DNA from: a virus
Length of the DNA: 64,000 nucleotides
Direction: 5' to 3' (one strand)
Virus record (IMG/VR): IMGVR_UViG_3300047564_003843
Location: 32,001 to 96,000 of that record
Below are positions 1-32,281 of the stretch, piece after piece. The number at the start of each line of letters is the position of its first letter. Position 1 is the stretch's first letter. The translations under genes and the position numbers were made by a program. The notes below the pieces were generated by a model. It saw nothing but the letters and a program-made list of their open reading frames with translations. It searched no databases and had not been told where the DNA came from.

Positions 1-82
1 CTTCCACTTTTACCTTCATCTTGTTTGGACAACGCGCTGGAAGGACGCATAACAAGACTCAGGTTGAGAGTTCGCCGTATTG

Positions 83-1852
83 CTACCGCGTTCCCACATT
101 TGTTAGAACTCGCTCTGCCGTCCTTCCGATTTCTACGGAAGCCGATACAGGGTCAAGCACACCTGACATTACCACGCCCGATTTATTATCGAGTAAAGAC
201 TTAGCGTAATGACCGCCATCAAAAGGAAGCCATAAAACCGCAACGCCTGACTCGGCGCAACGCTTTGTCCAATGACGAGCCTTTATTTTTTCTTCGTGTG
301 TGTATTGTCCATCTGAAACAATTACAAGTAAGCGAGCGCCACTTCCATTGAGAAGATTTAGTGCGCCATCAAGTGCGCGAAATGCTTTGTCAAACTTTTC
401 AGTTGAGTCGCTCGCAGAATAAACACGAACTTCTTCAAGGTGTTGTCCTGCCTTCAAGGTGGGAAAAACATCTGAACCATAATAAACCATCGCACATCTT
501 CCTTGAACTCTGCGAGTTGCTTCAGACATAACCCACGCAGTTGTAGCCATTGGCTTCATCGCATCTCCCATAGAACCTGAAATGTCCACCATCACGCCAA
601 CTGTAAGAGTTGTTTCTTCTGTCTGCTTACGAACTGTGCGACGCCACGCTTCTGTTTGTTGCACAATTCCGCGTGACTTCATCGCGGCATTTTGGACGAG
701 TGCGCGAGAGCGCAATCTTCCGGGAGGAATAATCGAAGTAATCTCTGTCGCATCTCTGTCACGATACTTTGCTTTTTCTAGCATCTTAGAAATCGTAACT
801 GCCGCGATGCGCTCTGCGCTAGTTGGCTTACGAACTTCTACGAGAGTCGAGTTTGTGTTTCCACCTGTTTCTGTTGTGGATTTATTGAAAACTTTTTTTG
901 CCACATCTTTGTTGTCATTTTCTTCTTTGGCTTGGTTTGCTTTTGACTTTGCTTCCTCTGCCATTTCCTCAGACATTTGTTGGTCTGATAGCGCCATACT
1001 TGTTGAAACTGACATTTCATCTGAAGCCTCTTCTAATGCTTCCATAAGAGCCTGAGCGAAAGCCTGAGCCATCTGCTCATCTTTCTCGCCCTTCTCTTCT
1101 TTCACATCGCGAATAATCTTCGCCCACTCTTTTGCTAATGGATAGAGAAGAGTTTCTCCCTGAGTTGGGAAGTCAATAATAGTTTCGCGGAAAGTTTTAG
1201 AAATCTCTCGCAACTTAGAAACAACTTCTTCACCTAAGAAATCTAAAACTTGCTTTTCGATACCTGCAACTTCATCAGCATCTATGATGCCCGCATCAAC
1301 GCGAGCCAACACTAAACCAATCGCACTAGCGCAACTTTGAGTAGTTGAAGTGCTTGCTTCCATTTCTTTTGCATCTGCGATAACTATTTCCATCGCGCAA
1401 GAGCGTAGAAAGTTTAGAGAGTCAGGTTTGTGCCAAACACCCTGAGTTTCAATGCGACCTTCTTCAAGTAACATCAAAGCTTCAACTTCATCTTTTTCTA
1501 AATCTTTGTGAGCCTTTGGTATGTCAAAAATAGAAAACTTTGCGTGAAACGCTTCGTGAAGTATTGCGCCTGTTGCTTTAGGAAACTCATACTGCTGAGT
1601 GCGCTCGCGTAAATCTCCAACCATCATTGGAGTTGTTACTTTGCCAAACGCAATCTCTGTATTTACTTCAACCTCTGCGAGCGCAGGGTTGTAACACGCT
1701 GGTGCGCTACCACCTGCACCTTCACCTACATAAGCGATTAGGTCTGACCTATCAGACCAAGTATTTACAAGTTCGCCTATCTGTGCGCCTACGCCTAACC
1801 ACTCTTTCGGAGTGGACTCTGCTCTAGTGGCAGAAATCTTTATGTGTGCCAT
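83..1852 (-). CDS. vWA (MIDAS) domain protein with N-terminal HExxH motif; CobT/MoxR-partner-like
   Basis: 589 aa; ILHEAFH, VMVDISGSM (DxSxS MIDAS), LVIVSDG; directly downstream of a MoxR-type ATPase. Confidence 0.85.
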   Translation of the reverse strand: MAHIKISATRAESTPKEWLGVGAQIGELVNTWSDRSDLIAYVGEGAGGSAPACYNPALAEVEVNTEIAFGKVTTPMMVGDLRERTQQYEFPKATGAILHEAFHAKFSIFDIPKAHKDLEKDEVEALMLLEEGRIETQGVWHKPDSLNFLRSCAMEIVIADAKEMEASTSTTQSCASAIGLVLARVDAGIIDADEVAGIEKQVLDFLGEEVVSKLREISKTFRETIIDFPTQGETLLYPLAKEWAKIIRDVKEEKGEKDEQMAQAFAQALMEALEEASDEMSVSTSMALSDQQMSEEMAEEAKSKANQAKEENDNKDVAKKVFNKSTTETGGNTNSTLVEVRKPTSAERIAAVTISKMLEKAKYRDRDATEITSIIPPGRLRSRALVQNAAMKSRGIVQQTEAWRRTVRKQTEETTLTVGVMVDISGSMGDAMKPMATTAWVMSEATRRVQGRCAMVYYGSDVFPTLKAGQHLEEVRVYSASDSTEKFDKAFRALDGALNLLNGSGARLLVIVSDGQYTHEEKIKARHWTKRCAESGVAVLWLPFDGGHYAKSLLDNKSGVVMSGVLDPVSASVEIGRTAERVLTNVGTR

Positions 1853-1896
1853 TTCGTCGTTCCTTCCATTTATGTCTTTGTCCGAGACAGGTAAAT

Positions 1897-1924
1897 ACTA
1901 TAATGAAAATGCTTTGGGTGTCAA
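1897..1924 (-). promoter_or_regulatory. sigma70-type promoter for the vWA gene
   Basis: Minus strand TTGACA-16nt-TATAGT about 45 nt upstream of the ATG. Confidence 0.7.
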
Positions 1925-1933
1925 GTAGGGAGA

Positions 1934-1968
1934 GTAGGGGGCGCGACACCCAATGAAGCGCCCCCCAC
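1934..1968 (-). other. GC-rich 11-bp hairpin with a 13-nt loop in the AAA+ gene 3' UTR
   Basis: Minus strand GTGGGGGGCGC-TTCATTGGGTGTC-GCGCCCCCTAC; no U-tract follows. Confidence 0.7.
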
Positions 1969-1995
1969 CTGTTCAACGAAAATCCGACATAGGGG

Positions 1996-3039
1996 TTAGA
2001 TTTTCGCTGGCTTGACCTCTTCCCCATAAGCCCTTGTCAGCACATCGGCAACGACAGGTCTGTCTATTTCGGGGGCAGAGGCAAGAAGGTTCGAGATAGC
2101 GAAAGTATTGCCAAAAGTTTTCGCAACATCTCGGAAAGCAATAAGTTCTCGCATTTGTGGAGACCAAGAAACTTCATTTGATACTTGCTTCTTAGCAAGA
2201 TTTTGTGAAGCAGTAACCATCGCAGTTGGAACTCCAAGCTTTTTTGCGAGCGCCCAATCAGTAGTCATTTCAACTTGAATAGTGAAACGAGATAACAACG
2301 CTTCAGAAAGTCTAACTCCCGGAGCATTTGGATTTGTCGCAGCGACTACGAAAAAGTTTTCGTGAGCCTTGATAGTGCCACGCTCAGGATTTGCGGTGAC
2401 AACTAACTCGCGTCGTCCGTCCATCAAACCATAAGCAAGTGACAAAACCTTTGGGTCAATCAAACCAATTTCGTCAATGAAATAAACTTTGCCATTGACG
2501 GCGGCATCTATCAAACCACCATCAACCCAATCGAAACCACCACTTGGAGTTTGGACATAGCCACCAACTAAGTCAGCGACTTCTGTGTCACCTGTTCCCA
2601 TAAGTGTGACAACATCTTCACCAAACGCTGCTTCGACCATCGCAGTTTTTCCGCAACCCGGAGCGCCATAAATAAGTGCGAACATTGGAGAACCACCTTC
2701 ACCTGCGAAAGACTTCATTGTCATTTCTCTCGCTTTGCGAAGTGCCATAACATCTGAGTGTTCGCCCCACTTGCGACCAAAATACAAATCGCCATTTGGT
2801 CGAGCATAAGACTCAGCGCCTTCCATACTCTCGACACTAATAACTTGCTTTGACTTGCGTGGCGCTCTGTCAGAACCACTTGCGCGAGCAACATAACGCC
2901 CCGCAGGGTTCACTACTGCTGAAAGAGTTTTTGTTGAACTCTCAGATACTGCCTGTGCAACAACTTCTTCAGCGAATTGCCATAGTGTGCTACTCCCACC
3001 TAGTGAAGAGTATTTTTCTCTAAGATTTACATTTTCCAT
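1996..3039 (-). CDS. MoxR/CbbQ/NirQ-family (CobS-like) AAA+ ATPase
   Basis: Walker A GAPGCGKT, Walker B YFIDE, AATNP, LSEALLSRF; paired with vWA gene. Confidence 0.9.
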   Translation of the reverse strand: MENVNLREKYSSLGGSSTLWQFAEEVVAQAVSESSTKTLSAVVNPAGRYVARASGSDRAPRKSKQVISVESMEGAESYARPNGDLYFGRKWGEHSDVMALRKAREMTMKSFAGEGGSPMFALIYGAPGCGKTAMVEAAFGEDVVTLMGTGDTEVADLVGGYVQTPSGGFDWVDGGLIDAAVNGKVYFIDEIGLIDPKVLSLAYGLMDGRRELVVTANPERGTIKAHENFFVVAATNPNAPGVRLSEALLSRFTIQVEMTTDWALAKKLGVPTAMVTASQNLAKKQVSNEVSWSPQMRELIAFRDVAKTFGNTFAISNLLASAPEIDRPVVADVLTRAYGEEVKPAKI

Positions 3040-3059
3040 TTCCCTATGTCCTTTTCTCT

Positions 3060-3515
3060 CTACGCTATGAGTTCTTCAGGGAACTCGCTTGCTTCACGCA
3101 CTAAACCAATGCGATAAAGCAACTTGTTGGGTGTCTTACCTGTTCGGATTTCTTCTAAATCCTTTTTTGATACTTCCACAAGGAAAGCATCTTTTACAAT
3201 CTGCCAACCACCATTGTTTATCGCATCAAACAAATCCATAGCGAAAAACAATCTTTGAGTAGCAAACGCTTCTTTCTTTTCATCATCAAGCATTACTCCA
3301 CCTAGTTCAGTTATTGCGTGATTAGGTATTGGAGAGTTACGCCATTGTTTCTTTGGGGAAGCAGGTGTTACCACTCTGCGAAACAAATTGGCAGGAACAT
3401 CTTTGCCATCTGTTGTGTAACCATCAGGGGTGATGATTATTTGCATTGTTGCTCCGGGCTTACGGAACTCTGCATAAACTCCTACGCCCTGAACTTCTTT
3501 CGTGTTATCTAGCAT
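3060..3515 (-). CDS. hypothetical protein
   Basis: 151 aa ORF with leader AACGACGAAAGGACACCCA-ATG. Confidence 0.8.
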   Translation of the reverse strand: MLDNTKEVQGVGVYAEFRKPGATMQIIITPDGYTTDGKDVPANLFRRVVTPASPKKQWRNSPIPNHAITELGGVMLDDEKKEAFATQRLFFAMDLFDAINNGGWQIVKDAFLVEVSKKDLEEIRTGKTPNKLLYRIGLVREASEFPEELIA

Positions 3516-3556
3516 TGGGTGTCCTTTCGTCGTTGTTGGTGCTAGTGAAAACTAAT

Positions 3557-4048
3557 CTACCATCTCTCTGCTAAATGTGCAAACTCTTCAGCAAAAAGAT
3601 TTTCAGGTGTCGTGGTCTTTCCGAAAACTGAGGTGTAGAGGGCTAGACCCTCAGACCACTCTTCCCACCCCCCATCTGAGGAAACTTCAACTTGCTTCCC
3701 AAAAACATCTTTGATGAGTATTAGGGTTGCACAAACTAAAGTGTCGTAAGGGTGCATTTGGGTTTTGCAAAAGTTGAAAGAAGTTTTTGCATCTTTATCC
3801 CAATCAGGTGCAGGTGGCACGATTTGAGAGAAATGAAAAGTTTCGCACGCTTGTGGTTCTAAACCATTGAAAGCGATGCGCTCGCCACTTGCTTCCCAAG
3901 CGCCAGCCTTTTCTCCAAAAGCATCTGCAACTACAATGCCATTGAGGTCAGCTTTTTTTACTAACTCGATAAAACCTTTACGAACCTTTTCATAAAGTTC
4001 AGGCTCGTTACTATCGAGACTTCTTTTTAGATAATGGGTGTATCCCAT
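3557..4048 (-). CDS. conserved hypothetical phage protein (MGYTHY...FCKT..PYD type)
   Basis: 163 aa ORF with conserved leader and upstream promoter. Confidence 0.8.
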   Translation of the reverse strand: MGYTHYLKRSLDSNEPELYEKVRKGFIELVKKADLNGIVVADAFGEKAGAWEASGERIAFNGLEPQACETFHFSQIVPPAPDWDKDAKTSFNFCKTQMHPYDTLVCATLILIKDVFGKQVEVSSDGGWEEWSEGLALYTSVFGKTTTPENLFAEEFAHLAERW

Positions 4049-4078
4049 TTGGGTGTCCTTTCGTCGTTTGACAGGAAA

Positions 4079-4107
4079 AGATTATTTCATCTTCCTGCCA
4101 TTGTCAA
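4079..4107 (-). promoter_or_regulatory. sigma70-type promoter
   Basis: Minus strand TTGACA-17nt-TAATCT just upstream of the AACGACGAAAGGA leader. Confidence 0.75.
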
Positions 4108-4169
4108 GTAGAACACCAAAACTTTTTGATTTATTTCCTGACCCTGTGGGGATAAAAATGGCGAGCGCC

Positions 4170-4239
4170 AAAAAAAAGGTGAGCAGTTTTGTGACTTGCT
4201 CAGGTCTACGTGGGATAACGACGAAGAAACCCACGTAAG
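4170..4239 (-). ncRNA. candidate small antisense RNA (seed hairpin plus intrinsic terminator)
   Basis: -10-like TAGGGT at 4246-4251; stem TACGTGGG/CCCACGTA with loop TTTCTTCGTCGTTAT; second stem TGAGCA..TGCTCA then CC and T8. Confidence 0.6.
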
Positions 4240-4266
4240 ATTTTTACCCTATCAAGGGCCTAACTG

Positions 4267-4602
4267 TCAAGCTGGGTCCCGCGGCATGAAGTCATCGAGG
4301 TCAATACCGTATTGCTCGAACTTGTCATACAACACCGACATCTCCTCAGGCTTCTCGTAGGACTCCGTTATTAACCGTGCGACATTTGCACGCTGGCTAT
4401 CCGATGCTGACTCGAGGATTTCCCAATCTACTTCTCTCCAAAATGTAGTTTCCAATACGAGCAGACCGCTAGCGTCTCCGTAGTTCCCGTCAAGCGCGAA
4501 GTAACCTAGCGAGCGCTCTACAGGCTGCGGGTCTACTATTTTTACCTCTATAGGCGAGCCGTCTTCTACAAGCTCCGCGTCTAGAATCTCGTTCTCTTCC
4601 AT
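4267..4602 (-). CDS. acidic hypothetical protein
   Basis: 111 aa ORF, upstream GGAAGGG SD-like sequence. Confidence 0.75.
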   Translation of the reverse strand: MEENEILDAELVEDGSPIEVKIVDPQPVERSLGYFALDGNYGDASGLLVLETTFWREVDWEILESASDSQRANVARLITESYEKPEEMSVLYDKFEQYGIDLDDFMPRDPA

Positions 4603-4655
4603 CCCGTTTTTTACCCTTCCGTTTCAATAAACTAATACTACCCTGCCGTTTGGTA

Positions 4656-4681
4656 TGGGTGGGGCTTTTTTACCCCACCCA
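4656..4681 (-). terminator. stem-loop after the 4695 gene
   Basis: TGGGTGGGG-CTTTTTTA-CCCCACCCA inverted repeat. Confidence 0.5.
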
Positions 4682-4694
4682 CGCCGTGCCGTTC

Positions 4695-5420
4695 TTAGAC
4701 AATCATCTCGCTGATGTCCTCAAACTTCTGAATTACTTCTTCCGTCTTTTTGGCTTCTTGGGCGAGCCGTTCTTCTCGGTCAGGGCAGTCCTCATACCAC
4801 TCCTCAGGTTCATCCGAATAGTGGGCACAGGAACATCCGTCTGCGTTATCCCTTGCCACATAATCAGCGTGGCTTTCAGGAATGTCCCACTCTTCAACTA
4901 CAACTAACTCGCCGTTCTCGCTGGCATACTTCACGCCCCAGCCTTGCTCCTCTTCGCAATCAAACTCAAAGGTAAGTTCTGGATGTTGCTCAACCATTGC
5001 TCGGTAAGCACCTTCGGCAGGAGACCAAGCCGTAGAGAACTGATAACGAACCTCGCCTCTGGTTGAAATGTTATCTTCGTAGTAGAGGTCGCTACAATCC
5101 CACTTAGTTCCCCAGTTGCGGATGTTCCAGTCATACCAGCCATCTGACTTGAACTGCATAGAGACAGCCATCTTCTCTTCAACACTTAGTTCGTCATAAC
5201 CTTCTGGCTTGTAATCACTTGCCCCAAAGTAAAGTTGCTTGTTTTCTGGTTCTATGAAGTTCCAAAATGAAAGTTCTTTTTCTGAAACTTCTTCTTTTGT
5301 TTCATTTGTTTTCCAGTCCATCCAATAAGTTGTGTGAGGCTTGGTCGCCTTTTCAACAAACTTCTTGAGGTCTGCTTCTTCTCCTGTGATAACCACAGTA
5401 TTGAATACCCAGTTTGGCAT
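4695..5420 (-). CDS. DUF1281/Api92-like ferredoxin-fold protein
   Basis: MPNW start, WYDWNIRNWGTKWD and FSTAWSP motifs. Confidence 0.75.
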   Translation of the reverse strand: MPNWVFNTVVITGEEADLKKFVEKATKPHTTYWMDWKTNETKEEVSEKELSFWNFIEPENKQLYFGASDYKPEGYDELSVEEKMAVSMQFKSDGWYDWNIRNWGTKWDCSDLYYEDNISTRGEVRYQFSTAWSPAEGAYRAMVEQHPELTFEFDCEEEQGWGVKYASENGELVVVEEWDIPESHADYVARDNADGCSCAHYSDEPEEWYEDCPDREERLAQEAKKTEEVIQKFEDISEMIV

Positions 5421-5466
5421 TTTTATCCTTTCGTCGTTTTGGATAGTTCCATTTGGAACAGGTTTA

Positions 5467-5712
5467 TTATTTCACATCTCCACACTTTTCGCAAGTGCTC
5501 ATACAACAATCGCAATAGTTTTCGTGAGAGTTGTGGGAACAGCAGTCAGTATTGACAGCAACAAAATCCCACTTGGCGTTGATTTCATAATCCTCGAAGT
5601 CATCTGAAATCCAGTCATCAAGTTTGTTGATGGCGTCGTCTTCACTCTCTGCCTCGCCCACCTCAACCGCATACTCTTTGGTGAGGGTCGCATAGATTTT
5701 ATAGGTCGCCAT
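5467..5712 (-). CDS. hypothetical protein with Cys-rich C-terminus
   Basis: 81 aa ORF translationally coupled to the upstream gene. Confidence 0.65.
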   Translation of the reverse strand: MATYKIYATLTKEYAVEVGEAESEDDAINKLDDWISDDFEDYEINAKWDFVAVNTDCCSHNSHENYCDCCMSTCEKCGDVK

Positions 5713-6041
5713 TAGTCTTCATCCATCCAATCGAATCCCTGTGGAATGATGTTGATGAATCCTTCATTTGGGTCTGAAGGATTTGTGTTCACTGCTTGAA
5801 CGAATCGCAGTCCACAAGAGTTATCGAACCACTCCATTACTTTCTTTGACATTTCTTCAGGTGTCATTTCATCTGAAGTAATAAGTGGGTCGTATCCATA
5901 CTGGCGCATTAGAGCAACCTGCTCGTCGTCCATAAGAACATAGATTTTGTGGCAGGTGTCCCAAGCGATTGCTTTTGCGCTCGCTGTGTATTCATCAAGT
6001 TTTTCTGCTTCATAAACTTTATAGTTCGACATCAAAGACAC
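5712..6041 (-). CDS. hypothetical protein
   Basis: 109 aa ORF (WDTCHKIY, CGLRF); start may be at a later Met. Confidence 0.75.
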   Translation of the reverse strand: MSLMSNYKVYEAEKLDEYTASAKAIAWDTCHKIYVLMDDEQVALMRQYGYDPLITSDEMTPEEMSKKVMEWFDNSCGLRFVQAVNTNPSDPNEGFINIIPQGFDWMDED

Positions 6042-6216
6042 CTACGCCTTCTTTGTAATCTTCAATGATGTCTGTGAGCAAACCATCAAGAAAGTTTTCA
6101 GCACGACCTTCTAGTTCGTCGGCAACTTTTTCCCATTGCTCATCTGTGATGAAAGCAGAAATCATTCCCTCGAAATCATCTTTCGAGATGGTGCTTATGT
6201 TCACTACCTTTGCCAT
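6019..6216 (-). CDS. small acidic hypothetical protein
   Basis: 65 aa ORF with AACGACGAAAGGA leader; promoter TTGCTT-17-TAATGT at 6251-6279. Confidence 0.75.
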   Translation of the reverse strand: MAKVVNISTISKDDFEGMISAFITDEQWEKVADELEGRAENFLDGLLTDIIEDYKEGVGVFDVEL

Positions 6217-6367
6217 TTGTATCCTTTCGTCGTTTTACTTGGCATAACAAACATTACATCATCTACCTGATAAAAGCAAATCTCGCCACACCTGACTAGA
6301 CATCTTGGTAATCAAAAAGTTATTTGAAAGTTTGGACTGGCCTGGGGCCCTGGACCTGGACGAAAAG

Positions 6368-6559
6368 TTATTGGGAAGTTCCTGCTGATGGCGGATCAGA
6401 CATCAACGATTCTTGAACAGCCTCAATGTTTTTTACCCCGCGGGTTCTACGACGCTTCGTGCGTCGGTCCTCAAAGACTTGGGACTTCTGGTTCTGCACA
6501 TAGTTTCCAGGCACGCCCCGTGTTAAACGACGCAGTTCATCCCGTTCTTTTTTACCCAT
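6368..6559 (-). CDS. small basic hypothetical protein
   Basis: ORF track 6368-6598; MGKK start at 6559 preferred because a TATTAT/TATTTT -10-like box lies just upstream. Confidence 0.55.
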   Translation of the reverse strand: MGKKERDELRRLTRGVPGNYVQNQKSQVFEDRRTKRRRTRGVKNIEAVQESLMSDPPSAGTSQ

Positions 6560-6622
6560 AGCAAAATAATAAACCCGTGGGCTCGCAGTGAGCTCCACGG
6601 GCTTACCGTAGTTATTTGGATG

Positions 6623-7048
6623 TTACTTCGACGCTGCAGCGGATCTTGCTGACTCCACCATCTCACGAGTGAAGTATGTAGCACCCGTTATAGCATGCCG
6701 TTCGATTTTTTTACTCCTGTAGACCCAACTCTCCGCGCCGCCAAAGAACGCAGAGGAGTGATCCGTCCCGAGACTCCACAGTTGTTTGGACGTGCCGTTA
6801 GTTGAAATTTCAAATACGTAGATGCGGTCATGCCGTTCTAAGTCCATGCCGACTACCTTGCCGTTCTCGAACTTGTAGTGCGGGTGGTCTAGAAGTCTGA
6901 ACCACATAAAATTCATTGCGTCCGCAGGAGTGCACGCCGCGTAAATTTCTCCGAAGTGGGACTTTAATCCCTCGCCGTTGATGTCCGTGAACACGCACTC
7001 TGGTGCTGCGTGATACAACTTGCTCGGCACTCTCATGCACGCCCGCAA
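6623..7048 (-). CDS. hypothetical protein
   Basis: 141 aa ORF; LYHAA near the N-terminus is reminiscent of ADP-ribosyltransferase-fold proteins but unverified. Confidence 0.7.
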   Translation of the reverse strand: MRACMRVPSKLYHAAPECVFTDINGEGLKSHFGEIYAACTPADAMNFMWFRLLDHPHYKFENGKVVGMDLERHDRIYVFEISTNGTSKQLWSLGTDHSSAFFGGAESWVYRSKKIERHAITGATYFTREMVESARSAAASK

Positions 7049-7338
7049 TCTTCATACGGGTATTCGTGCGGTTCTAAGTCTTCGCAACTGCAGAAACCGA
7101 ATAGTTCTACTTGCTTGCCGTGATTGAGATCCGCGAGCTCGCCCCACGACATCACAACATCTTCTCCTTCTTCGACGAGCCGCTGCCCCTTGCCTGTTCC
7201 CAAGCCGACGCCGTATGTATCAAAGTGTGGTTCACACATATTGCCCCACGGGCCGTATGTTGTCATGCCGTCAAATCTTGCTTTATCTGTGCAGAAGTCG
7301 CATTGAGGTAATGCCGCTACTTTTGTAATTGTTGACAC
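7033..7338 (-). CDS. zinc-binding hypothetical protein
   Basis: CDFC...MCEPH and GLGTGKGQ; SD GGAAGGA. Confidence 0.75.
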   Translation of the reverse strand: MSTITKVAALPQCDFCTDKARFDGMTTYGPWGNMCEPHFDTYGVGLGTGKGQRLVEEGEDVVMSWGELADLNHGKQVELFGFCSCEDLEPHEYPYEDCGRA

Positions 7339-7380
7339 GGTTGTCCTTCCGTCATTTTGTTGAAGCAGGTGCTTCAGAAA

Positions 7381-7677
7381 CTATTCTATGTTCTCCCTGT
7401 CAAAATAGCAAATCGCTCCAACAAAGAAAACAACTGCTACCACAACATAGATAAGCGGGTTGATGAAGAGAGTAACGCTGGCCAAGGCTGCAGCTGCTAG
7501 TAAGGAACGAAAGATGTTCAGACCTGTGTGATGCCTCGCCACCAGAAAAACTCCGACTGGCCACAGTGCGGATCCCAAGACCAACATCCCAACAATCCAG
7601 TCTTGTTCACCATAAGGGTCGTTGTCTATGTCGTCTCGAATGCGAGTCAACTGCCAAAGTATTAATGTCTCTATCAC
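7381..7677 (-). CDS. membrane protein
   Basis: 98 aa with about three hydrophobic segments; TAGAAT 7 nt upstream of GTG. Confidence 0.7.
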   Translation of the reverse strand: MIETLILWQLTRIRDDIDNDPYGEQDWIVGMLVLGSALWPVGVFLVARHHTGLNIFRSLLAAAALASVTLFINPLIYVVVAVVFFVGAICYFDRENIE

Positions 7678-8265
7678 GCCATCGATTCTATTATAAATTT
7701 TTTATCTGCGCAAGTGTTTGGTTTGCAACCTACAGCTGTCATCTAGTTACAAAGTTATTTGGAAGTTCCACAGCTCGGGCCCGAAACGATCAGAAATTTT
7801 TACCCCTGCAAAAGCCTGGCACCTGGTGCTGCAGCTTGGGATGGTAAAAGTTATTTGGAAGTTGGAAGCTGAAGGGCCCTTTTTAGTTTTGCGGCCGCTA
7901 GGTTGCAAAACCTAATCCTACCTGGCTTGTCAAGCTCTGTCAACCTGGCAGCCAAAGTTGTTCATAAGTTGTTCAGGGATCTGGAGCTGGCCATCTTCAG
8001 GGGTAAAAATTCTTGATCTGGCGGCGGGCCGCTGTCTCAAGTTGTTTGGATGTTGACGGTGATCTGCAGCTACGTGGTGCCCGTTGGACCTGTTGGACCC
8101 GTTGGTCCAGAGCTGGCCGCTGTAGCTTGGCAAAGTTATTTGGAAGTTGGGAGCTGATCTGCAGCTGCAGCTAAATCTTCCTGCACTATTACCGTTGTAA
8201 TTTAGGTGTAAATTACTACGCGACATACCGTTGTATATATGTATGCGCTCAGGCGCACGCCGTTA

Positions 8266-8403
8266 TTAGGAAGTGGTTGAGGCGGGCCGTTGAGTTGTGG
8301 CGCAGCTTTTACACACGCCGTCTGGATTAAGTTCCTCGCCGCACCAGAAGCAATCCGTTTTGCTCGCCGCCTTCGGTGGGTAAAAATTACTGAAGGTGCT
8401 CAC
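8266..8403 (-). CDS. small zinc-ribbon protein (not in ORF track)
   Basis: MSTFSNFYPPKAASKTDCFWCGEELNPDGVCKSCATTQRPASTTS; two CxxC motifs; GTGA overlap with upstream mini-ORF. Confidence 0.6.
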   Translation of the reverse strand: MSTFSNFYPPKAASKTDCFWCGEELNPDGVCKSCATTQRPASTTS

Positions 8404-8477
8404 AGCAAATCGTCCATATCGCTCGCGCCGTCTTTTGGCGCAGGTTCTTTCGTGCAGTCACCCTCTAGCCGTCCCAT
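8400..8477 (-). CDS. 25-aa peptide (not in ORF track)
   Basis: MGRLEGDCTKEPAPKDGASDMDDLL preceded by GAGGAG SD. Confidence 0.45.
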   Translation of the reverse strand: MGRLEGDCTKEPAPKDGASDMDDLL

Positions 8478-8489
8478 GCCGTTCTCCTC

Positions 8490-8544
8490 TTGACAAACCG
8501 TTAATTACTAACTATGCTAGCACCTAGCATAGTTTAGTAATTAA
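8490..8544. promoter_or_regulatory. long palindrome overlapping a rightward sigma70-type promoter
   Basis: TTGACA(8490)-17nt-TATGCT(8513); inverted repeat TTAATTACTAACTATGCTAG-cac-CTAGCATAGTTTAGTAATTAA. Confidence 0.6.
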
Positions 8545-8747
8545 TCTATAAATCCCATGCCGCTAATGTTGCGAACAGGCTGCGGCTCATTTGATTGAAG
8601 TTTCAACAATCCGTTAACCATCTCCGCTGCTTCATTAGCGCGAGCCGTTACTCGAATGTGTTCGTCCCTTGTGCGGGCCAGCTTGATGTCGTTCTCGAGC
8701 CGCTCTGCGTGCAGCTGTGCTAATTCCAAAAGTTGTTCGGTTGTCAT
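8541..8747 (-). CDS. hypothetical coiled-coil protein
   Basis: 68 aa ORF coupled by ATGA overlap to the upstream gene. Confidence 0.7.
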   Translation of the reverse strand: MTTEQLLELAQLHAERLENDIKLARTRDEHIRVTARANEAAEMVNGLLKLQSNEPQPVRNISGMGFID

Positions 8748-9736
8748 CGTAGCTCGTCGAGCTCCTCTTCAGAGATTGCTGGTTGGGAAAGTTGTTCCGA
8801 TGTCGAGCTCGGATCAGAGCTTTGGGGGGTAAAAATTTTGGGGTCTTCTTCCGTTAACTCCAAAATAACTTCTGCTTCTTTCTGGTCCGTGTGATCAACA
8901 AGCTCGCCTTGAATGATGGTGGCTCCTGCTTTTAAGCGGGCAAGCCGTTCAGCAATAATCTCAGCGGGTGTTCGGGAATCTTTAAGTTCCACGCCGAGGT
9001 CAATCTCCATACCAGCACGGATACCAGCACGGTCAAGAATCTCTGTCGCCGCTTTGAGTTTGACTGGCTCGGAGATGGCGTTCTCCATAAGTTCTTCAAG
9101 TTTGTCTACCGCGTAGGGTGCAGACTGCATCAGCTTCTTGCGAGCCCGTTCGATGTCCGCGCCCGTCTTCTTGTTCGCGCCAAGGTGTAGGCGACACAAG
9201 CCGTCATCTTTCATACGCCCCGATGACCACAGCATGCAGCGGATGCCCTCGGATGTGTGGGCACGGCAACGCATAGGTAATGCTTTTGGCGCTCGCCGAG
9301 CCGTTGGCGGTCCGCCATCTTCCTGCTCTTTTAGGTAGGCGCGGGTCGCGCCGAGTACCCAAGGCGGTACGAGTTTGCACGCCTCTGAATCAACAACCAG
9401 ATCCAGACCCGTCAAGTAATCGGAGTTATTCTGAAGTGGTTCGCTTAATAGGGCCCTTTTGCTGGAGAGCGACATGAGTCGCCGTTCCTTCATCTGCTCA
9501 AGGGAGCGGGCCTCAATTAGCCCAGTCGGGTGTCCGTTCTCTGTATAGACGGGAACCCATTGAAAGTTATGTTGGCGTAAAAGCAAGCGGTTCTCATAAG
9601 TATCTTCAACTATGCCGCGGTCATGCTCGATAAAACCCAATTCAGACAAATCGGGCCGCATGTCGACAGGGGTGTCGATGAGCGGTTCATTCGGCTCATC
9701 GTCACCCTTGCCGTCAAAAATCTGGAGGTCGGTCAA
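8744..9736 (-). CDS. putative terminase small subunit-like DNA-binding protein
   Basis: CRAHTSEGIRC...LCRLHLG (HGGxSTG-like Zn knuckle) plus VKLKAATEILDRAG helix typical of TerS-like proteins. Confidence 0.5.
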   Translation of the reverse strand: MTDLQIFDGKGDDEPNEPLIDTPVDMRPDLSELGFIEHDRGIVEDTYENRLLLRQHNFQWVPVYTENGHPTGLIEARSLEQMKERRLMSLSSKRALLSEPLQNNSDYLTGLDLVVDSEACKLVPPWVLGATRAYLKEQEDGGPPTARRAPKALPMRCRAHTSEGIRCMLWSSGRMKDDGLCRLHLGANKKTGADIERARKKLMQSAPYAVDKLEELMENAISEPVKLKAATEILDRAGIRAGMEIDLGVELKDSRTPAEIIAERLARLKAGATIIQGELVDHTDQKEAEVILELTEEDPKIFTPQSSDPSSTSEQLSQPAISEEELDELR

Positions 9737-9751
9737 AATTTTTACCCCCAG

Positions 9752-9940
9752 CTATTCGTCAATGCCGAGATGTCTCCTGAGTTCTGCACGCTTCTCAACT
9801 AGTTGGTCGGCGTAATACATCTTTTCGGTTTTGGTTCGATACTCAGCGTTACGCATGAGAGTAACCAAACTCTCAATGTCAGCTTTAAGGCTGAGCTCCT
9901 TCTCAACGTGAGCGTTCAGCTCCTCTGGGGTCATTGGCAT
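9752..9940 (-). CDS. hypothetical protein
   Basis: 62 aa ORF with AAGGA SD. Confidence 0.7.
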   Translation of the reverse strand: MPMTPEELNAHVEKELSLKADIESLVTLMRNAEYRTKTEKMYYADQLVEKRAELRRHLGIDE

Positions 9941-9958
9941 CTTAAAGTTATTCCTTTG

Positions 9959-10255
9959 TTAGGACTTCTTCTTTGCTGGAGCCTTCTTTGGCTTTGCGGC
10001 CTCGGAGGCAAGTTTCTTAGTAACTTCGGCAGCAGCGGCTACTGCGATGCGGCCAAATGCTGGGTCCTTCTTGTTAATCCAGCGGAGTGCCGTTGGGATA
10101 ACAGATGCCCATAGTGCGTTGGCTACAAGTAGCCATTCGCCAGAACCAAAGTCGAGTGGGGAGCCCACGCCACTGGTCTGACTAACAATCATTACTGCGC
10201 CGATAACCTGACCAAGGAGGTTCCGTAGGTAGGACTCGAGTGCTGCTTTGTTCAT
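9959..10255 (-). CDS. holin-like membrane protein
   Basis: MNKAALESYLR, two hydrophobic helices, RWINKKDPAFG, basic C-tail; SD GAAGGA. Confidence 0.6.
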   Translation of the reverse strand: MNKAALESYLRNLLGQVIGAVMIVSQTSGVGSPLDFGSGEWLLVANALWASVIPTALRWINKKDPAFGRIAVAAAAEVTKKLASEAAKPKKAPAKKKS

Positions 10256-10482
10256 GAACAAGTTCCTTCTAAGTAGGGTTTTTTAGTTTCTACTTGGAAT
10301 ACAAAATAACACACATGGTTGAAAAGTTTTTTTCAAAAATGCTGCAAGAAAAGAGTCCTTTATAAACAAAAGTTTGGGCCAAAACTCTGAAATGAGCGTA
10401 AATCAATGGGTTTCAAAGTGTTGGACGGCAGCACAAAATGGGTGAATAAAAAGTGATTCTGGTCGGCGTGTCGAGTCGAAAA

Positions 10483-10557
10483 TTAAGCCATAACTGCCAA
10501 AAGCAAAAGCAAGACTTGCATCAACTCAGACCAAGCAAGAAGGAAGAATTCGATCAC
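10483..10557 (-). CDS. 24-aa hydrophobic peptide (not in ORF track)
   Basis: MIEFFLLAWSELMQVLLLLLAVMA after strong SD ACGGAGG. Confidence 0.45.
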   Translation of the reverse strand: MIEFFLLAWSELMQVLLLLLAVMA

Positions 10558-10623
10558 AGTAAACCTCCGTTCTGGTTTTCCGAAGACTACCTTAGGGGAG
10601 GTATAAAAGCAAGAACCTGCTAG

Positions 10624-10815
10624 TTAGACGTCAACGTCTAAAAATTCTTCAAGCTTTTTTATAAGACGACTTGAGTCATCTACAAATTGTTTTTTGCCTT
10701 TGGGCCAAGCACTCTCATTGAGTTCTGGGTTTAGGTACCATCCACCTGCTCGAGCAATCCGTAGAGCGGTTACGGCTTCCTCTTTAGTCAAGGTGATTTT
10801 TTCTTTACCGCTCAT
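10624..10815 (-). CDS. hypothetical protein
   Basis: ORF track 10624-10836; MSGKE start at 10815 likely. Confidence 0.65.
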   Translation of the reverse strand: MSGKEKITLTKEEAVTALRIARAGGWYLNPELNESAWPKGKKQFVDDSSRLIKKLEEFLDVDV

Positions 10816-11101
10816 CTGGGGTGTCTTCCTTTTCAAGGATAGGCAGTTGCTTCAAGATGTCAGGGTCGTTATCAACCAAAACATCGATGGCTCGACGAAT
10901 CCCGAGGGTATAGAAAGTCTTATCTTCCTCACCCATTGAGGCTTCCCAATCTTTAACCATTTGCTCAAGCTTTCCGACTTTATCCAAAATGGCACCATCA
11001 GAAATATCCCCGACCTTCTGGATAATTTTTTGATAAGCCTCTGGGGAGATTTCATGATTAACAGTCATATCCCAAAGGATGGGTGTTAGTTGTTTTTTCA
11101 T
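10805..11101 (-). CDS. hypothetical protein
   Basis: 98 aa ORF coupled to the upstream gene. Confidence 0.7.
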   Translation of the reverse strand: MKKQLTPILWDMTVNHEISPEAYQKIIQKVGDISDGAILDKVGKLEQMVKDWEASMGEEDKTFYTLGIRRAIDVLVDNDPDILKQLPILEKEDTPDER

Positions 11102-11577
11102 CGTATCGCCTCAAGACAATTCTCGCAAAGAAGAGCATCGTAACCAGTCGCTTCATAAGAGACGGTTTTATACTCGGTGACTGCTGTTGGCACAATTCTC
11201 ACATCTCCTGCTGGAGTTGCTTCAATCGAGCACTTGTCACATTTAGGATTTTCAATCCACTCAACATTTTTGTCTGCACTAAAAGATGCAGCAAGTCCAC
11301 GAGTCAAAGCGTGTTCTACTCCAGGACCACTGGTCTTTCTCAGGAACAGTCTGGTGTCTTCAACCTCAACTACTGGACGAAGATTTTTACAAGGGCAGTT
11401 GTATCTGCTTGGTACACATATAACCAAACCAGCGTCGGTTGAGTGTTTGTTTATAGCGTGACCACAGAGGCAAATCCTCTTGTCACGACTTGGTTTGCGA
11501 GTCAGACTTTCATCTGCCTCAACTGCTTCTTCTGCACTAAGTCCTAGCATGGCTAGTGCATCTCTAGCGTTCGTCAT
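11098..11577 (-). CDS. Cys-rich zinc-binding protein
   Basis: CLCGH..H, CPC, CDKC, LCENC motifs; likely start MTNARD. Confidence 0.7.
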   Translation of the reverse strand: MTNARDALAMLGLSAEEAVEADESLTRKPSRDKRICLCGHAINKHSTDAGLVICVPSRYNCPCKNLRPVVEVEDTRLFLRKTSGPGVEHALTRGLAASFSADKNVEWIENPKCDKCSIEATPAGDVRIVPTAVTEYKTVSYEATGYDALLCENCLEAIR

Positions 11578-11794
11578 TGTTGTCTCTCTCGTTTCCCATG
11601 AAGTTCCACCCCATGATGTTTCTGAACTGAGTATCCGTCTCAGCTTTTTCAATCAAGCCCCCAAGCATTCTCTCGAGGAACTCATTTTTGCGTCGTGCTT
11701 CTCTAAATGCGTTTATGGCAGAAATAATAAACATCGCCATAAAAACACTAAAGAAATTTACTACCCCAATAACTGCTACTTGTTCCCAACTCAT
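11564..11794 (-). CDS. single-TM membrane protein
   Basis: 76 aa ORF with N-terminal hydrophobic helix. Confidence 0.7.
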   Translation of the reverse strand: MSWEQVAVIGVVNFFSVFMAMFIISAINAFREARRKNEFLERMLGGLIEKAETDTQFRNIMGWNFMGNERDNNDER

Positions 11795-11982
11795 TTGGCA
11801 CCTTCAACTTTCAAAAGTCCATGAGCCATCAATTCGTCAACCACTGCCTCAGCATCTCTGGTTGCGATTTTTAACCACTCGTCTGCATCTAGTGGAATCC
11901 TTGTAGGAAACCAATCTTTCATCAAACGACCAGCAATCACATACTTGACTCTCTCAGGAGTCACTGTCATTTTGTCATTCAT
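11791..11982 (-). CDS. hypothetical protein
   Basis: ORF track 11791-12048; MNDK start at 11982 follows TTGACA at 12013-12018. Confidence 0.65.
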   Translation of the reverse strand: MNDKMTVTPERVKYVIAGRLMKDWFPTRIPLDADEWLKIATRDAEAVVDELMAHGLLKVEGAK

Positions 11983-12209
11983 AAAAGTATTATTACCTAA
12001 CACTAGAGAACTTGTCAACCTAAATCCTTCCACCAATTTCCACCCCAATCTGGGACTTAGATACTACCATACACTATTTTTAAATACAACCTAACACTAG
12101 TTTTAAATATTCAAATTCTCAACCCATTTTCTTAGGGGGTGAAACTTTTTTCTCATACGCGTATAGGAAATAGGTTGAATATTAAAATATTAAGTATAGT
12201 TTTTATTCT

Positions 12210-12454
12210 TACTATCACGATTTTTAAAAAGTTTTTGAATTTTCCTTGATAGTAGAGACCTTCCTGCAAAAAACTGTACTATCACGATTTTTTAAAAAAC
12301 TTTTTATTTTTCTTGATAGTATGTTTTACAATGAAAAAAATAACTATCGCAGTTTGTAAAGTTTTTTAGCTTTTTTCTTGATAGTTATTTTTACAGCCCA
12401 AATAAACTACTATCAGGATTTTACAAAAAATGCTGAACTTTTTTGATGATAGTA
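12210..12454. repeat. four AT-rich tandem units, each with an inverted ACTATC...GATAGT pair; candidate replication origin
   Basis: Units start at 12210, 12277, 12342, 12408 (period 65-67 bp) in a 430-bp AT-rich intergenic region. Confidence 0.8.
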
Positions 12455-12530
12455 ACTCTAAAAACTATACACCAAACACTAGATTTTGAATAATCGACCA
12501 TGCAGAGAAATCTGCCTCAAATGTCGACAT

Positions 12531-13184
12531 TTAGACAGTAAAAATGACTGCCTTATGATGCTCAACCCTGACCAAGGGGTGTAGCCAAATCTGGAACCCA
12601 GCCTCTTTAGCCCCAACACACCAAGAGTAGTCCTCCCCCAACATGACAGGAAAGTCTGCCCCTTCAACCCCAATCTCTCGAATCTTGAACCATGGCCTAG
12701 CCATCTTCTCAAAGACCCCAGACTTAACCCCCAAGAATCCAAAACCTACCCCATCAACCCTGACAGGCTCACCCTCTACTAGAAACTCCACAGCGTTTAG
12801 AGAGACAGGATGTCCTGCTTCATTGACCCTCATAGCCCCTATACGACCATCTCGACCTATAGCCATCATTCCAGAGATGATGTCCTTATCGCTTTTCAAA
12901 ATTAACTCAAAATCTTTCACAGACCAAGAGATGTCTGAATCTATCCAAATAATCTTTTCATAGGTAAAGGCTCCACCCCCAAAAGCCACCGCTTGCCAAT
13001 CCGCCCCGTAAGAGTCGGTTGCAGTGTTCTCTCTGGCGCTTGGAACAAAGCTCGAATATTGAGATACGAAGTGATACTTCAAACCCTTGTGATTAAGCCA
13101 TTTTGTAGTCTCTATCAGGCTCTTTACAAAATCCGCCTTCATATCAGAACCAGGCGTTGCAATTACTACGTTGTAGTGTTCCAT
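12531..13184 (-). CDS. GT-A fold glycosyltransferase-like protein
   Basis: IATP, WIDSD (DxD), GFGF, GEDYSWC motifs; leaderless start TAGGCT-6nt-ATG. Confidence 0.75.
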   Translation of the reverse strand: MEHYNVVIATPGSDMKADFVKSLIETTKWLNHKGLKYHFVSQYSSFVPSARENTATDSYGADWQAVAFGGGAFTYEKIIWIDSDISWSVKDFELILKSDKDIISGMMAIGRDGRIGAMRVNEAGHPVSLNAVEFLVEGEPVRVDGVGFGFLGVKSGVFEKMARPWFKIREIGVEGADFPVMLGEDYSWCVGAKEAGFQIWLHPLVRVEHHKAVIFTV

Positions 13185-13214
13185 AACCACAGCCTACACC
13201 TGTAGGATTGTTTT
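13185..13214. promoter_or_regulatory. back-to-back -10 boxes for two divergent leaderless genes
   Basis: AGCCTACA-cc-TGTAGGAT; each -10 is 6 nt from an ATG. Confidence 0.7.
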
Positions 13215-13535
13215 ATGGCAAAACCAAAGACATTTAAATTAGAGCACTCCTCGGTAAGGCTAAAGGACGTCCATCCTGAAGACCAGTGCTTAAAAGAGTT
13301 TTGCACCATCCACAACCGCTCTAAACACCATATGCGCCACCTGCCACAGAACTGGCGGGAAGACCTTGGAATTATGGAGCGAATCTGCGAGCATGGCGTC
13401 GGACATCCAGACCCTGACGAGTTTATGCTTAGTAAGGACATCTACAATTCAATTCACGGATGTGATGGATGTTGTACCCCAATAAGAAAGCTTATTGTTC
13501 GAAAAGACTTAAGGAAACAGGGCAGTGCAAATTGA
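13215..13535 (+). CDS. Cys/His-rich hypothetical protein
   Basis: CTIH, ERICEHGVGHPDPD, HGCDGCC. Confidence 0.8.
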   Translation: MAKPKTFKLEHSSVRLKDVHPEDQCLKEFCTIHNRSKHHMRHLPQNWREDLGIMERICEHGVGHPDPDEFMLSKDIYNSIHGCDGCCTPIRKLIVRKDLRKQGSAN

Positions 13536-14028
13536 CGAATTAAAAGAGGCTCTCACCCTTCAGATGATGATGGCTGGCGGTTTTGATCCTGACAACCGAG
13601 AAGAGTCACCTCTTGAATGGGACTTGAATACTAAAGACAGTCAATACTCAATTTGTAAAGATATTGCAGATTCCCATGTAGATTTTGTTCTTACTCAAAT
13701 AATGTCTATTCCATCTCCTGAAGCACAAGAAGATGTAGAGAATGAAGATTATCTAGATTTTGAATATGAAGATAATCCTCTTGATAGTAAAAAGACAAAC
13801 ACAACTTCTGCAGCTCTTTTTATTTTTATGGATGCAGGTAATGGTAATCCACGTTATGTTTCAGATGTTCGGCAGTGGCTTGCAAATGTTGATAAAGCAG
13901 GTATCCCAGATGACACTGAAATCGAGGGACAGTTATATTTAAGTTATGACATTGAAGGTTCAATAGAAACTATTGAATGTGGTGAGTGTGGTTATGAAGA
14001 AACCCTCATCTCAAGTCACAATCACTGA
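13525..14028 (+). CDS. acidic hypothetical protein
   Basis: 167 aa ORF in operon; C-terminal CGEC. Confidence 0.7.
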   Translation: MQIDELKEALTLQMMMAGGFDPDNREESPLEWDLNTKDSQYSICKDIADSHVDFVLTQIMSIPSPEAQEDVENEDYLDFEYEDNPLDSKKTNTTSAALFIFMDAGNGNPRYVSDVRQWLANVDKAGIPDDTEIEGQLYLSYDIEGSIETIECGECGYEETLISSHNH

Positions 14029-28885: not shown

Positions 28886-29618
28886 AGACGAGATTGTTGT
28901 TTATTGGGGACCTTGTTACGAAGTTGGTCCAGACCACATTATTGATTGGAACATGTTCTATGCCGACCCTACAGAGCTTCTTCCTGATTTAAAAAAGATG
29001 AAAGATAAGACAGCAGGAAATCAAAGCATACTTTACTGCCCTGCTTTCACCGAAAACTATAAAAATACTTTTGTATTCAGCAGCGTTGTAGACAGCAGGT
29101 TTTCATACAACCATCAACAAAATTGCTGGGAAATACCTAATAAGTATCAAATACACCCTGCTACAACCATGCGAACCAGTTACATGGAAAATCGCAAACC
29201 TTTAGTTCTTTCTATGATTTGGCTTTTTGTTTCTGAAGAGCCATTAGAGATGGAGATTATTTCTCCATACCTTCATCAAACAGAGTCTTCCAAGTACGGG
29301 GTTATTGCCACTGGAAGGTTTGATATTGGACGTTGGTATAGACCTATCCATGCCGACTATCTGTTGTGGAGCGGTCTTGACAACTTTGCAATTAAAGAAG
29401 GAGACCCCTTTTTCTATGTAAGATTTAATACTGATAAAAAGGTTGTTTTAAAAAGATACGTTAATACCCCTGAAATCTACAAGCAGACTGTTTCTAATGT
29501 TGAAACTAAATTTCTTTTTGGTAAGACACCCCCTCTTGCAAAGCTATACAACTACTTTTCAAAAACTAGAACCAAAGACATAATGCTTAAAAAGATAAAA
29601 GATGCGGTGATTGAGTAA
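28878..29618 (+). CDS. conserved phage protein, paralog of the previous gene
   Basis: VYWGP, CPAF, GRFDIGRWYRP, shared TDKKVVLKR. Confidence 0.75.
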   Translation: MSKDEIVVYWGPCYEVGPDHIIDWNMFYADPTELLPDLKKMKDKTAGNQSILYCPAFTENYKNTFVFSSVVDSRFSYNHQQNCWEIPNKYQIHPATTMRTSYMENRKPLVLSMIWLFVSEEPLEMEIISPYLHQTESSKYGVIATGRFDIGRWYRPIHADYLLWSGLDNFAIKEGDPFFYVRFNTDKKVVLKRYVNTPEIYKQTVSNVETKFLFGKTPPLAKLYNYFSKTRTKDIMLKKIKDAVIE

Positions 29619-30070: not shown

Positions 30071-30090
30071 GGGAACGGGAGCCCGGAGAA

Positions 30091-30309: not shown

Positions 30310-30352
30310 CAGTAGAAAGTCTTCTGTTATTGCAGTACATATAGGAGCCACA

Positions 30353-32279: not shown

Positions 32280-32281
32280 AA

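Follow-up and report, generated by a model that had tools for sequence, protein, structure and literature searches.

A conserved hairpin loop antisense to a common early-gene leader, followed by a widespread RNA pseudoknot motif, in a large phage of a likely freshwater actinobacterium

To our knowledge, phage antisense RNAs that act on the phage's own genes come mainly from temperate enterobacterial phages, each of them controlling one gene or operon. The c4 RNA is cut by RNase P from the 5′ part of the transcript that it regulates, and the CI RNA of phage P4 is related to it in principle. Bacterial small RNAs can derive from 3′ UTRs, and the UCCC loops of Staphylococcus RNAIII and Rsa RNAs, like the actinobacterial 6C RNA, display pyrimidine seeds that target Shine-Dalgarno (SD) regions. 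The promoter-early stem-loop (PeSL) cassettes of T4-type phages have been proposed as recombination modules. As described for phages P1 and P7 (PMC12197685), loop sequences of the c4 antisense RNA pair around the ribosome-binding site on the phage mRNA. By analogy, the hairpin reported here would be a loop-displayed antisense riboregulator, like P1 c4 in mechanism and outside every catalogued family.

The DNA analysed, referred to as the window, is a stretch of 64,000 nucleotides comprising bases 32001–96000 of a 160.7-kb IMG/VR phage genome; positions are those of the window unless the genome is named. At 64% identity, the primase-helicase of 'Actinomycetia phage DSL-LC01' comes closest to that of the present phage, followed by those of large Microbacterium phages at about 50%. 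DSL-LC01 is a freshwater phage assembled from a metagenome (PMC10611076). The G+C content of the phage is 43–47%, and its host is likely a freshwater actinobacterium. A DNA search of GenBank phages with positions 3000–7000 returned no match. Positions 1–9700 hold small genes in a minus-strand block, and several small early genes stand behind sigma-70-like promoters (TTGACA-N17-TAnnnT) in which the spacer sequence GCAGGAAG is often conserved.

The leaders of these early genes share the motif AACGACGAA, which occurs seven times in the window against 0.24 expected: five leaders, one coding site and one plus-strand complement of the hairpin loop described below. Genome-wide there are 18 copies, 12–13 of which are leaders of the form AACGACGAAAGG-N5-8-ATG lying a few bases after early promoters, spread over genome 22–38 kb with a single copy at 158.5 kb. 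The leader motif keeps one orientation, at about +1 to +15 of the sigma-70-like promoters. Each leader copy in the window belongs to the first gene behind an early promoter and lies just 5′ of, or overlaps, the SD GAAAGGA, which matches the actinobacterial anti-SD. The leader sites are cheap to open (mean 1.5 kcal/mol).

1853–1861, 3526–3534, 4060–4068, 5430–5438 and 6226–6234, minus strand: the five leader copies of AACGACGAA in the window.
4048–4107, minus strand: the transcription unit next after the hairpin, with TTGACA at 4107–4102, a 17-nt spacer, TAATCT at 4084–4079, the leader AACGACGAAAGGA at 4068–4056 and ATG at 4048; it carries the target copy nearest to the hairpin.

The promoter-leader cassette is a general design across this phage group. 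DSL-LC01 shows TATAAT-agaatca-...-AACGACGAAAGGA-N5-8-ATG before nearly every small early gene (locus L450, record positions 29192–34407), and has 16 leaders in all. Paralogous promoter-leader-gene units with near-identical flanks were also seen at opposite ends of the present genome, at 22.1 kb and 158.5 kb, both outside the window; they may reflect terminal redundancy or a duplicated early cassette.

A first-pass annotation, made from the letters of the window, had proposed a discrete small RNA of about 70 nt on the minus strand at this locus, with its own promoter, a seed hairpin and an intrinsic terminator, acting in trans on the early leaders. The minus-strand letters around the element are as that annotation wrote them, and the features that we distinguish there are listed in the direction of transcription.

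4267–4602, minus strand: a gene for a 111-aa protein of a small-protein family (YFAxDGNYGDA...T..W..DW...R..A), taken from the list of open reading frames.
4265–4270, minus strand: TTGACA overlapping the stop codon, a possible −35 element for TTGACA-N18-TAAAAA.
4240–4251, minus strand: the TAGGGTAAAAAT box with core GTAAAAA, conserved wherever the upstream stop codon falls.
4206–4238, minus strand: the anti-leader hairpin, with 5′ arm 4238–4230, 15-nt loop 4229–4215 (UUUCUUCGUCGUUAU) and 3′ arm 4214–4206.
4217–4225, minus strand: the seed UUCGUCGUU, the exact complement of the leader AACGACGAA, containing a YUNR motif (UUCG).
4180–4206, minus strand: a predicted H-type pseudoknot, with S1 formed by GAC 4206–4204 and GUC 4195–4193, and S2 by UGAGCA 4202–4197 and UGCUCA 4185–4180.
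4152–4177, minus strand: a U8 run (4177–4170), a small GC hairpin GGCGCUCGCC (4169–4160) and AUUUUUAU (4159–4152).

Folding recovered the annotated hairpin as the minimum-energy structure: TTACGTGGG and CCCACGTAG form 8–9 bp around the 15-nt loop, with z = −2.9. The antisense relationship noted in the first pass was likewise borne out, since the seed UUCGUCGUU exactly complements AACGACGAA in 12–13 early-gene leaders, including the five in the window. Opening the seed costs 0.44 kcal/mol, and the seed-leader duplex is worth about −13 kcal/mol (−13.5). Genome-wide, the complement of AACGACGAA lies in a transcribed-strand hairpin loop only once. When the loop was shuffled with its composition preserved, a 9-nt Watson-Crick match to the 14-nt leader arose in 0.19% of trials, and the observed duplex energy was reached in 1%. 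A YUNR motif (UUCG or CUCG) is present in the loop of every variant; such motifs favour fast loop pairing.

Pairing of the loop with start regions, which the annotation had suggested comparing with shuffled controls, stood out in part. At ≤ −12 kcal/mol the loop paired with 14 of 177 crude start regions against 5.6 ± 3.4 for the controls, but the enrichment is modest (p about 0.02–0.08, start regions against shuffled loops). A genome-wide scan of duplex energies did not discriminate, because purine-rich coding tracts able to pair with the U/C-rich loop are numerous; more than 30 such coding sites equal the leaders in pairing energy. The strongest pairing of the loop is predicted with the start region of the primase-helicase gene (46037–46092, minus strand), where AUGACGACGGAGG stands behind TTGACT-18-TACCTT; the predicted duplex has 13 contiguous pairs, three of them G-U, and an energy of −17.1 kcal/mol. 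Extra pairing between the UGGGU of the hairpin arm and ACCCA, which the annotation had suggested, is lost in relatives. Its statement that the element has no open reading frame agrees with the relatives, among which none is conserved across the element and indels of 2, 4 and 5 nt occur. Rfam gave no match at E ≤ 1 for positions 1–14000 and noise alone at E ≤ 10 for 4140–4280, and the covariance models of the catalogued c4 RNA family did not match the element.

Two further structures were considered and set aside. In the fold of this phage GGGUAAAAA forms a long-range helix with UUUUUAUCCC further downstream; this helix is absent from two related loci (L383 and L387). A second hairpin, with a conserved loop, lies after the AAA-ATPase gene (1934–1968, minus strand; GGGGGGCGC, loop UUCAUUGGGUGUC, GCGCCCCC). 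As a second anti-leader regulator it was rejected: its loop complements the −35 region TTGACACCC just 20 nt downstream, and its GGGUGUC is retained by relatives whose leaders lack CACCCA. We read it as local structure, in which the loop and TTGACACCCAA of the promoter 20 nt downstream possibly form a local pseudoknot.

Conservation of the anti-leader hairpin was followed in six IMG/VR contigs whose flanking proteins are 76–99% identical, and then in further contigs located by way of the leader motif and, subsequently, of homologues of the upstream 111-aa protein. In the six close contigs the 15-nt loop is unchanged, and the stem changes with compensation, from ACGTGGG/CCCACGT to CGCGGG/CCCGCG. 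Across about 20 distinct hairpins or lineages the stems are unrelated in sequence yet paired, and the loop core is kept; the replaced stems include TTACGTGGG, TGCGCGGG, CGCGGGGGG, TTCGGTAGG, TTCGGGAGG, TCGCCAGGGG and GGGTGCCGGG, as well as the 13–15-bp stems of a sister group and the 12-bp stem of the one anti-leader hairpin in DSL-LC01. RNAalifold reported compensatory changes at all five modelled pairs. Because the loop has been kept while the stems were replaced with pairing preserved in about 20 lineages, the hairpin is a real, selected structure with a sequence-specific, single-stranded loop. The seed is unpaired in this conserved structure with its covarying stems, as in antisense riboregulators that display their seed in a loop. 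The hairpins fall into two groups.

Group A (this phage included): stem of 6–10 bp, loop UUUCUUCGUCGUU(U/AU), then the pseudoknot.
Group B (the sister group): GC-rich stem of 13–15 bp, loop UUUUA(C/U)UCGUCAUUU, then a U-run; the anti-leader loop lies inside an ordinary-looking operon terminator hairpin.

The first-pass annotation had looked to co-variation of loop and leaders in relatives, and it is found there: seed and target change together, loop G or A tracking leader C or U, in about two independent events. Lineages with the loop UCGUCAUU use AAUGACGAA leaders, and those with the loop UCGUCGUU mainly use AACGACGAA. Within ±3 kb of the hairpin, the 11 short-stem, loop-G lineages of Group A have 39 AACGACGAA leaders against three AAUGACGAA, and the loop-A lineages of Group B have none against 15. 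Over whole contigs, four loop-A genomes of Group B have 15 AAU against three AAC leaders. The closest comparison is between two sister loci. L429 has a long-stem Group B hairpin with a G-type loop, and its leaders are two AAC and two AAU; L424, with loop A, has five AAU leaders and no AAC. The orthologous leader just downstream of the hairpin has C in L429 and U in L424, matching loop G and loop A, and this pair could be explained by a single recombination tract carrying loop and adjacent leader. Uncompensated mismatches also occur: loop-A genomes have three AAC leaders, and L498 combines an unchanged loop with AACAACGAA leaders. The covariation thus appears to fit selected RNA-RNA pairing, on the strength of about two independent changes.

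The leader seems to have a wider role than that of a target. Five other leader-rich contigs, all of them fragments, have no anti-leader hairpin, and the search of these contigs for an anti-leader loop found solely coding look-alikes and leader complements. Conservation of the leader therefore has causes besides the hairpin RNA, probably a place in an efficient initiation region.

The RNA element always lies in the 3′ UTR of some gene, which in most lineages encodes a member of the 111-aa family (69 viral and 80 metagenomic homologous loci examined). This family has the invariant motif YF-DGNYG-A...T...R and at least 69 viral and 199 metagenomic relatives. Searches of Pfam and PHROG gave no family for the 111-aa protein, and a confident AlphaFold2 model (pLDDT 83) had no PDB fold match at E ≤ 0.001. 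In two lineages, L034 and DSL-LC01, the hairpin follows an AAA ATPase or endonuclease gene instead, with a copy of AAACGACG(A) merely 8–30 nt after it. The element stands at the 3′ end of an operon in every case, 115–165 nt upstream of a promoter-leader unit, and the operon that ends at the present hairpin appears to start at the promoter with a leader near 5494–5430.

These positions bear on the idea of a discrete transcript of about 70 nt with its own promoter and intrinsic terminator, for which we find no support: the element is always part of a gene's 3′ UTR, the supposed terminator belongs to the pseudoknot motif, and in the sister group the anti-leader loop sits within the operon's own terminator hairpin. 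TAGGGT, proposed as the −10 element, has no −35 at a workable spacing, and the box that is conserved there is GTAAAAA, whose core lies 0–10 nt 5′ of the hairpin in every short-stem lineage. A better-spaced candidate would use the TTGACA at the stop codon, which the four closest lineages retain although their reading frames differ, and which is missing or out of place in lineages further away. TTGACA-N17/18-TAAAAA is found in these four, TAGACC or TAGACT-N17-TAAAAA in two more; L388, L391 and L394 lack such a pair. The promoter scan made no call at the hairpin, because the candidate −10 has no final T. The promoter evidence is mixed, and a promoter of its own for the hairpin RNA is doubtful. 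The TAGGGTAAAAAT box itself is a candidate for a weak −10, a processing site or a further copy of the polar repeat GGGTAAAAAT. This repeat occurs 17 times genome-wide against 0.38 expected; 15 of the 17 copies lie within genome 22.7–41.7 kb, mostly along the direction of transcription.

4240–4249, 7796–7805, 8001–8010, 8378–8387, 8827–8836, 9738–9747 and others: copies of the GGGTAAAAAT repeat in the window.

The contexts of GGGTAAAAAT vary, from SD-spacer-ATG regions to the loops of long hairpins after terminators and the interior of genes; it could be a stoperator-like or a phage-specific promoter motif.

At the other end of the element, the inverted repeat TGAGCA-N11-TGCTCA had been taken for the stem of an intrinsic terminator (4202–4170). 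It proved instead to be stem 2 of a widespread pseudoknot motif in which S1 and S2 covary. With a 6-bp stem and an 11-nt loop, it departs from the intrinsic-terminator pattern of a GC-rich stem, a loop of 3–8 nt, an immediate U-run and an arrangement conserved in relatives, and the terminator scan made no call. The T8 run that was to complete the terminator is replaced by unrelated sequence in relatives, being absent or different in L012, L049, L065 and L094, and canonical terminators stand 10–30 nt further downstream in relatives. In this phage the likely true 3′ end or terminator region is 4152–4177; a homologous CCGCGCUCGCGG-UUUUUA is present in a relative.

The pseudoknot motif reads CCUGAGCA-AG-UCAC-AAAAC-UGCUCA in the window, where its A-rich loop 3 (4192–4186) is ACAAAAC. 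The family form is CCUGAGCA-WG-NNNN-AAAAC-UGCUCA and the general motif CCUGRRCA-WG-N4-AAAAC-UGYYCA. Its features are a complementary S2, 3–5 nt before CCUG that pair with variable loop bases, and AAAAC in loop 3, all of which are found at 4206–4180. The motif is present in more than 130 viral contigs (at least 119 stretches in the scan), with 136 distinct instances (loci L143–L256 and L475–L477). S2 is Watson-Crick compensated in 134 of the 136, and the four nucleotides before CCUG find partners among the variable loop bases at 3.3 of 4 positions; shuffles give 1.98 (maximum 2.22). Because S2 is compensated and this pairing exceeds that in shuffles, the sequences point to a pseudoknot of the H type whose third loop is A-rich. 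This genome has a single copy, and so do Mycobacterium phage Labelle, the T7-like Paracoccus phage ParMal1 and cyanophage S-RIM4. Rfam holds no family for it, and 12 bacterial pseudoknot loci were also without an Rfam match. A literature search by sequence and description gave nothing specific; the 8,495 unnamed candidates of PMC10690425 may include the motif.

The position of the pseudoknot relative to genes is regular. A same-strand open reading frame ends ≤80 nt upstream in 123 of 134 viral instances, and the spacing between the stop codon and CCUG has a sharp lower limit of 8 nt, which is also its mode. From the motif to the next start codon the median distance is 32 nt. A tRNA gene or an SD-ATG often comes directly after the motif; among 131 cases there are 24 with a tRNA gene beginning 4–14 nt beyond it. 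The tail is moderately U-rich (38% against 25%). No protein family common to the neighbours was found when one was sought. This spacing suggests interplay with a terminating ribosome, or a protective role at the 3′ end. Among the 119 bacterial-genome matches listed, about 40 carry the full signature; the bacterial matches are partly chance, since about 500 chance matches are estimated in 596 Gb. In five bacterial MAG contigs (L301, L320, L332, L348 and L364) a tiny open reading frame, MK(K/R)(Y/F)x(V/I)PRxAHCxEG(C/H)..., lies behind a strong SD. In four of these contigs the frame ends at the UGA within the pseudoknot's CCUGA; in L320 the stop is a UAA upstream of the motif. One possibility is that the frame encodes a leader peptide, or a precursor of RiPP-like type, coupled to the pseudoknot.

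Our preferred reading of the hairpin, to which we assign a probability of roughly 0.55, is riboregulation: placed at the 3′ end of an early operon, its loop would pair with the leader that the early genes share and obstruct ribosome binding. Such an RNA would be carried in the 3′ UTR of the 111-aa gene and may be set free as a stable 3′ fragment that the pseudoknot and a terminator protect. The pyrimidine seed presented by its 14–17-nt loop, UUCGUC(G/A)UU, is highly constrained and has a YUNR turn; it would base-pair with AA(C/U)GACGAA at the 5′ end of the short early-transcript leaders, where this sequence abuts or overlaps the SD GAAAGGA. A 9-bp duplex at the leader box falls inside the 30S footprint. 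Pairing over about 9 bp, at roughly −13 kcal/mol, would thus block 30S binding or invite cleavage, and early-gene translation would be damped as the RNA accumulates. The hairpin would then probably damp early-gene translation. Sequences and folds show the structure, its conservation, its accessibility, its complementarity to the leader and the link between loop and leader variants; we infer expression of a stable RNA, repression, action in trans on many leaders, and any timing. Two points weigh against such a mechanism. The element lies inside the early region and would hence be made together with its proposed targets, and one RNA would have to titrate a dozen abundant mRNAs. The early-to-late switch put forward in the first-pass annotation goes no further than plausibility, because the RNA is encoded among its targets.

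The same pairing could act in cis, which we consider possible though on the unlikely side. The 3′-terminal loop might pair with the 5′ leader of its own operon mRNA (5438–5430) and close the mRNA, limiting translation of the first cistron or protecting the 5′ end; or, on read-through transcripts, it might pair with the following gene's leader and thereby restrict translation to mRNAs that start at that gene's own promoter. The constant place of the element at an operon 3′ end, with a promoter-leader unit 115–165 nt beyond, speaks for action in cis, as do the apparent start of its operon at the leader near 5494–5430, the change of the immediately downstream leader along with the loop in L424 and L429, and the AAACGACG(A) copy 8–30 nt after the hairpin in L034 and DSL-LC01. 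Against a cis role, one loop faces 12–13 leaders over 16 kb and at 158.5 kb; leader variants track the loop across whole genomes, and the extreme constancy of the loop suggests many simultaneous partners. That constancy exceeds that of the leaders, which would also be expected if the hairpin were instead a protein-binding site, for the 111-aa product or a host factor, with incidental or secondary complementarity to the leaders. Tight synteny with one small protein family across deep divergence speaks for this as well. Yet the hairpin follows AAA ATPase (L034) or endonuclease (DSL-LC01) genes in two lineages, no RNA-binding fold is recognisable in the 111-aa protein, and it would be left unexplained why loop G/A goes with leader C/U; we regard a protein site as improbable.

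Cluster A mycobacteriophages have stoperators, which are repressor sites, and by analogy AACGACGAA might be a double-stranded DNA operator downstream of the early promoters, with 4217–4225 as one more site. The motif does lie at about +1 to +15 of sigma-70-like promoters in a single orientation, and all copies would change together upon a change of repressor specificity. Such an operator would not account for the inverted repeat on its flanks, with covariation in about 20 lineages, nor for a hairpin site that is always inverted relative to the others and always in the loop. The loop is always antisense to leaders on the same strand, which argues for RNA pairing rather than a DNA site, and we hold the operator to be very improbable. 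Because covarying stems, constant antisense orientation and the G/A–C/U link are left unexplained by the protein-binding and DNA-operator readings, both are less likely than a riboregulatory loop. An ordinary 3′-end structure for stability or termination, with no specific partner and a chance match to the leader, is at least suggested by the sister-group hairpin and U-run, which resemble a normal terminator, and by the modest energy-based enrichment (p about 0.02–0.08). Against it, a 14–17-nt loop that stays letter-for-letter constant amid turnover of its stem is unexpected for a terminator, the leader match has a chance of 0.2%, and the loop covaries with the leaders; of the readings weighed here we find this one the hardest to credit.

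The riboregulatory loop and the pseudoknot can also be joined in a broader and rather speculative proposal, which we think unlikely as a whole. Hairpin and pseudoknot would together form a processed, exonuclease-protected riboregulator that shuts off an entire class of early mRNAs through their common leader, an RNA-only temporal control in a large phage of virulent type, and the pseudoknot would represent a new cross-phylum class that reads the position of the ribosome at the upstream stop codon, for example in translation-coupled termination or 3′-end protection. Such reading of ribosome position is suggested because of the hard 8-nt minimum from stop codons and the single-copy occurrence in myco-, cyano- and T7-like phages. 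Independently of this proposal, the pseudoknot is a separate lead, being compact, highly conserved, missing from Rfam and present in cultured phages.

Compared with preQ1-I aptamers and recoding pseudoknots, the latter 5–9 nt after the decoding site, the present motif has the same order of elements (S1a, short loop, S2a, S1b, A-rich loop, S2b) in about 29 nt, and it resembles them in a fixed minimum distance, here 8 nt from the upstream stop codon. It differs in that its S2 is 6 bp and conserved in sequence with S1 free to vary, and in that there is no slippery site and no in-frame extension and a tRNA gene often follows.

The repeated early promoter units of this phage, with near-identical flanks and a region of small accessory genes, recall the PeSL cassettes of T4-type phages; unlike in PeSL, what is repeated here is a promoter with a translated-leader box, of which an RNA loop presents an antisense copy. 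With P1/P7 c4 the hairpin has no sequence or Rfam relationship. Like c4, it is a small structured phage RNA with a loop complementary to sites in the ribosome-binding region elsewhere on phage transcripts, where a block of translation is proposed, and a few loop bases would set the specificity, so that the variants would constitute specificity groups. c4 controls a single operon (icd-ant) for lysogenic immunity in a temperate enterobacterial phage, whereas here one loop in a 3′ UTR faces a leader common to a dozen early units in a 160-kb freshwater actinobacterial phage. Such phages are abundant but uncultured. If the reading is true, the phage tunes a whole temporal class of genes post-transcriptionally with about 30 nt of RNA, and the natural G/A and C/U variants provide a ready-made compensatory pair. 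As in RNAIII, the Rsa RNAs, 6C and the 3′-UTR-derived small RNAs, the seed sits in the loop of a hairpin with a GC-rich stem, in the 3′-terminal part of a coding transcript, and it is predicted to pair with purine-rich, SD-proximal sequence of several mRNAs. Unlike in RNAIII, the Rsa RNAs and 6C, the seed here mainly meets a phage-specific box 5′ of the SD rather than the SD itself, and regulator and targets are both encoded by the phage.
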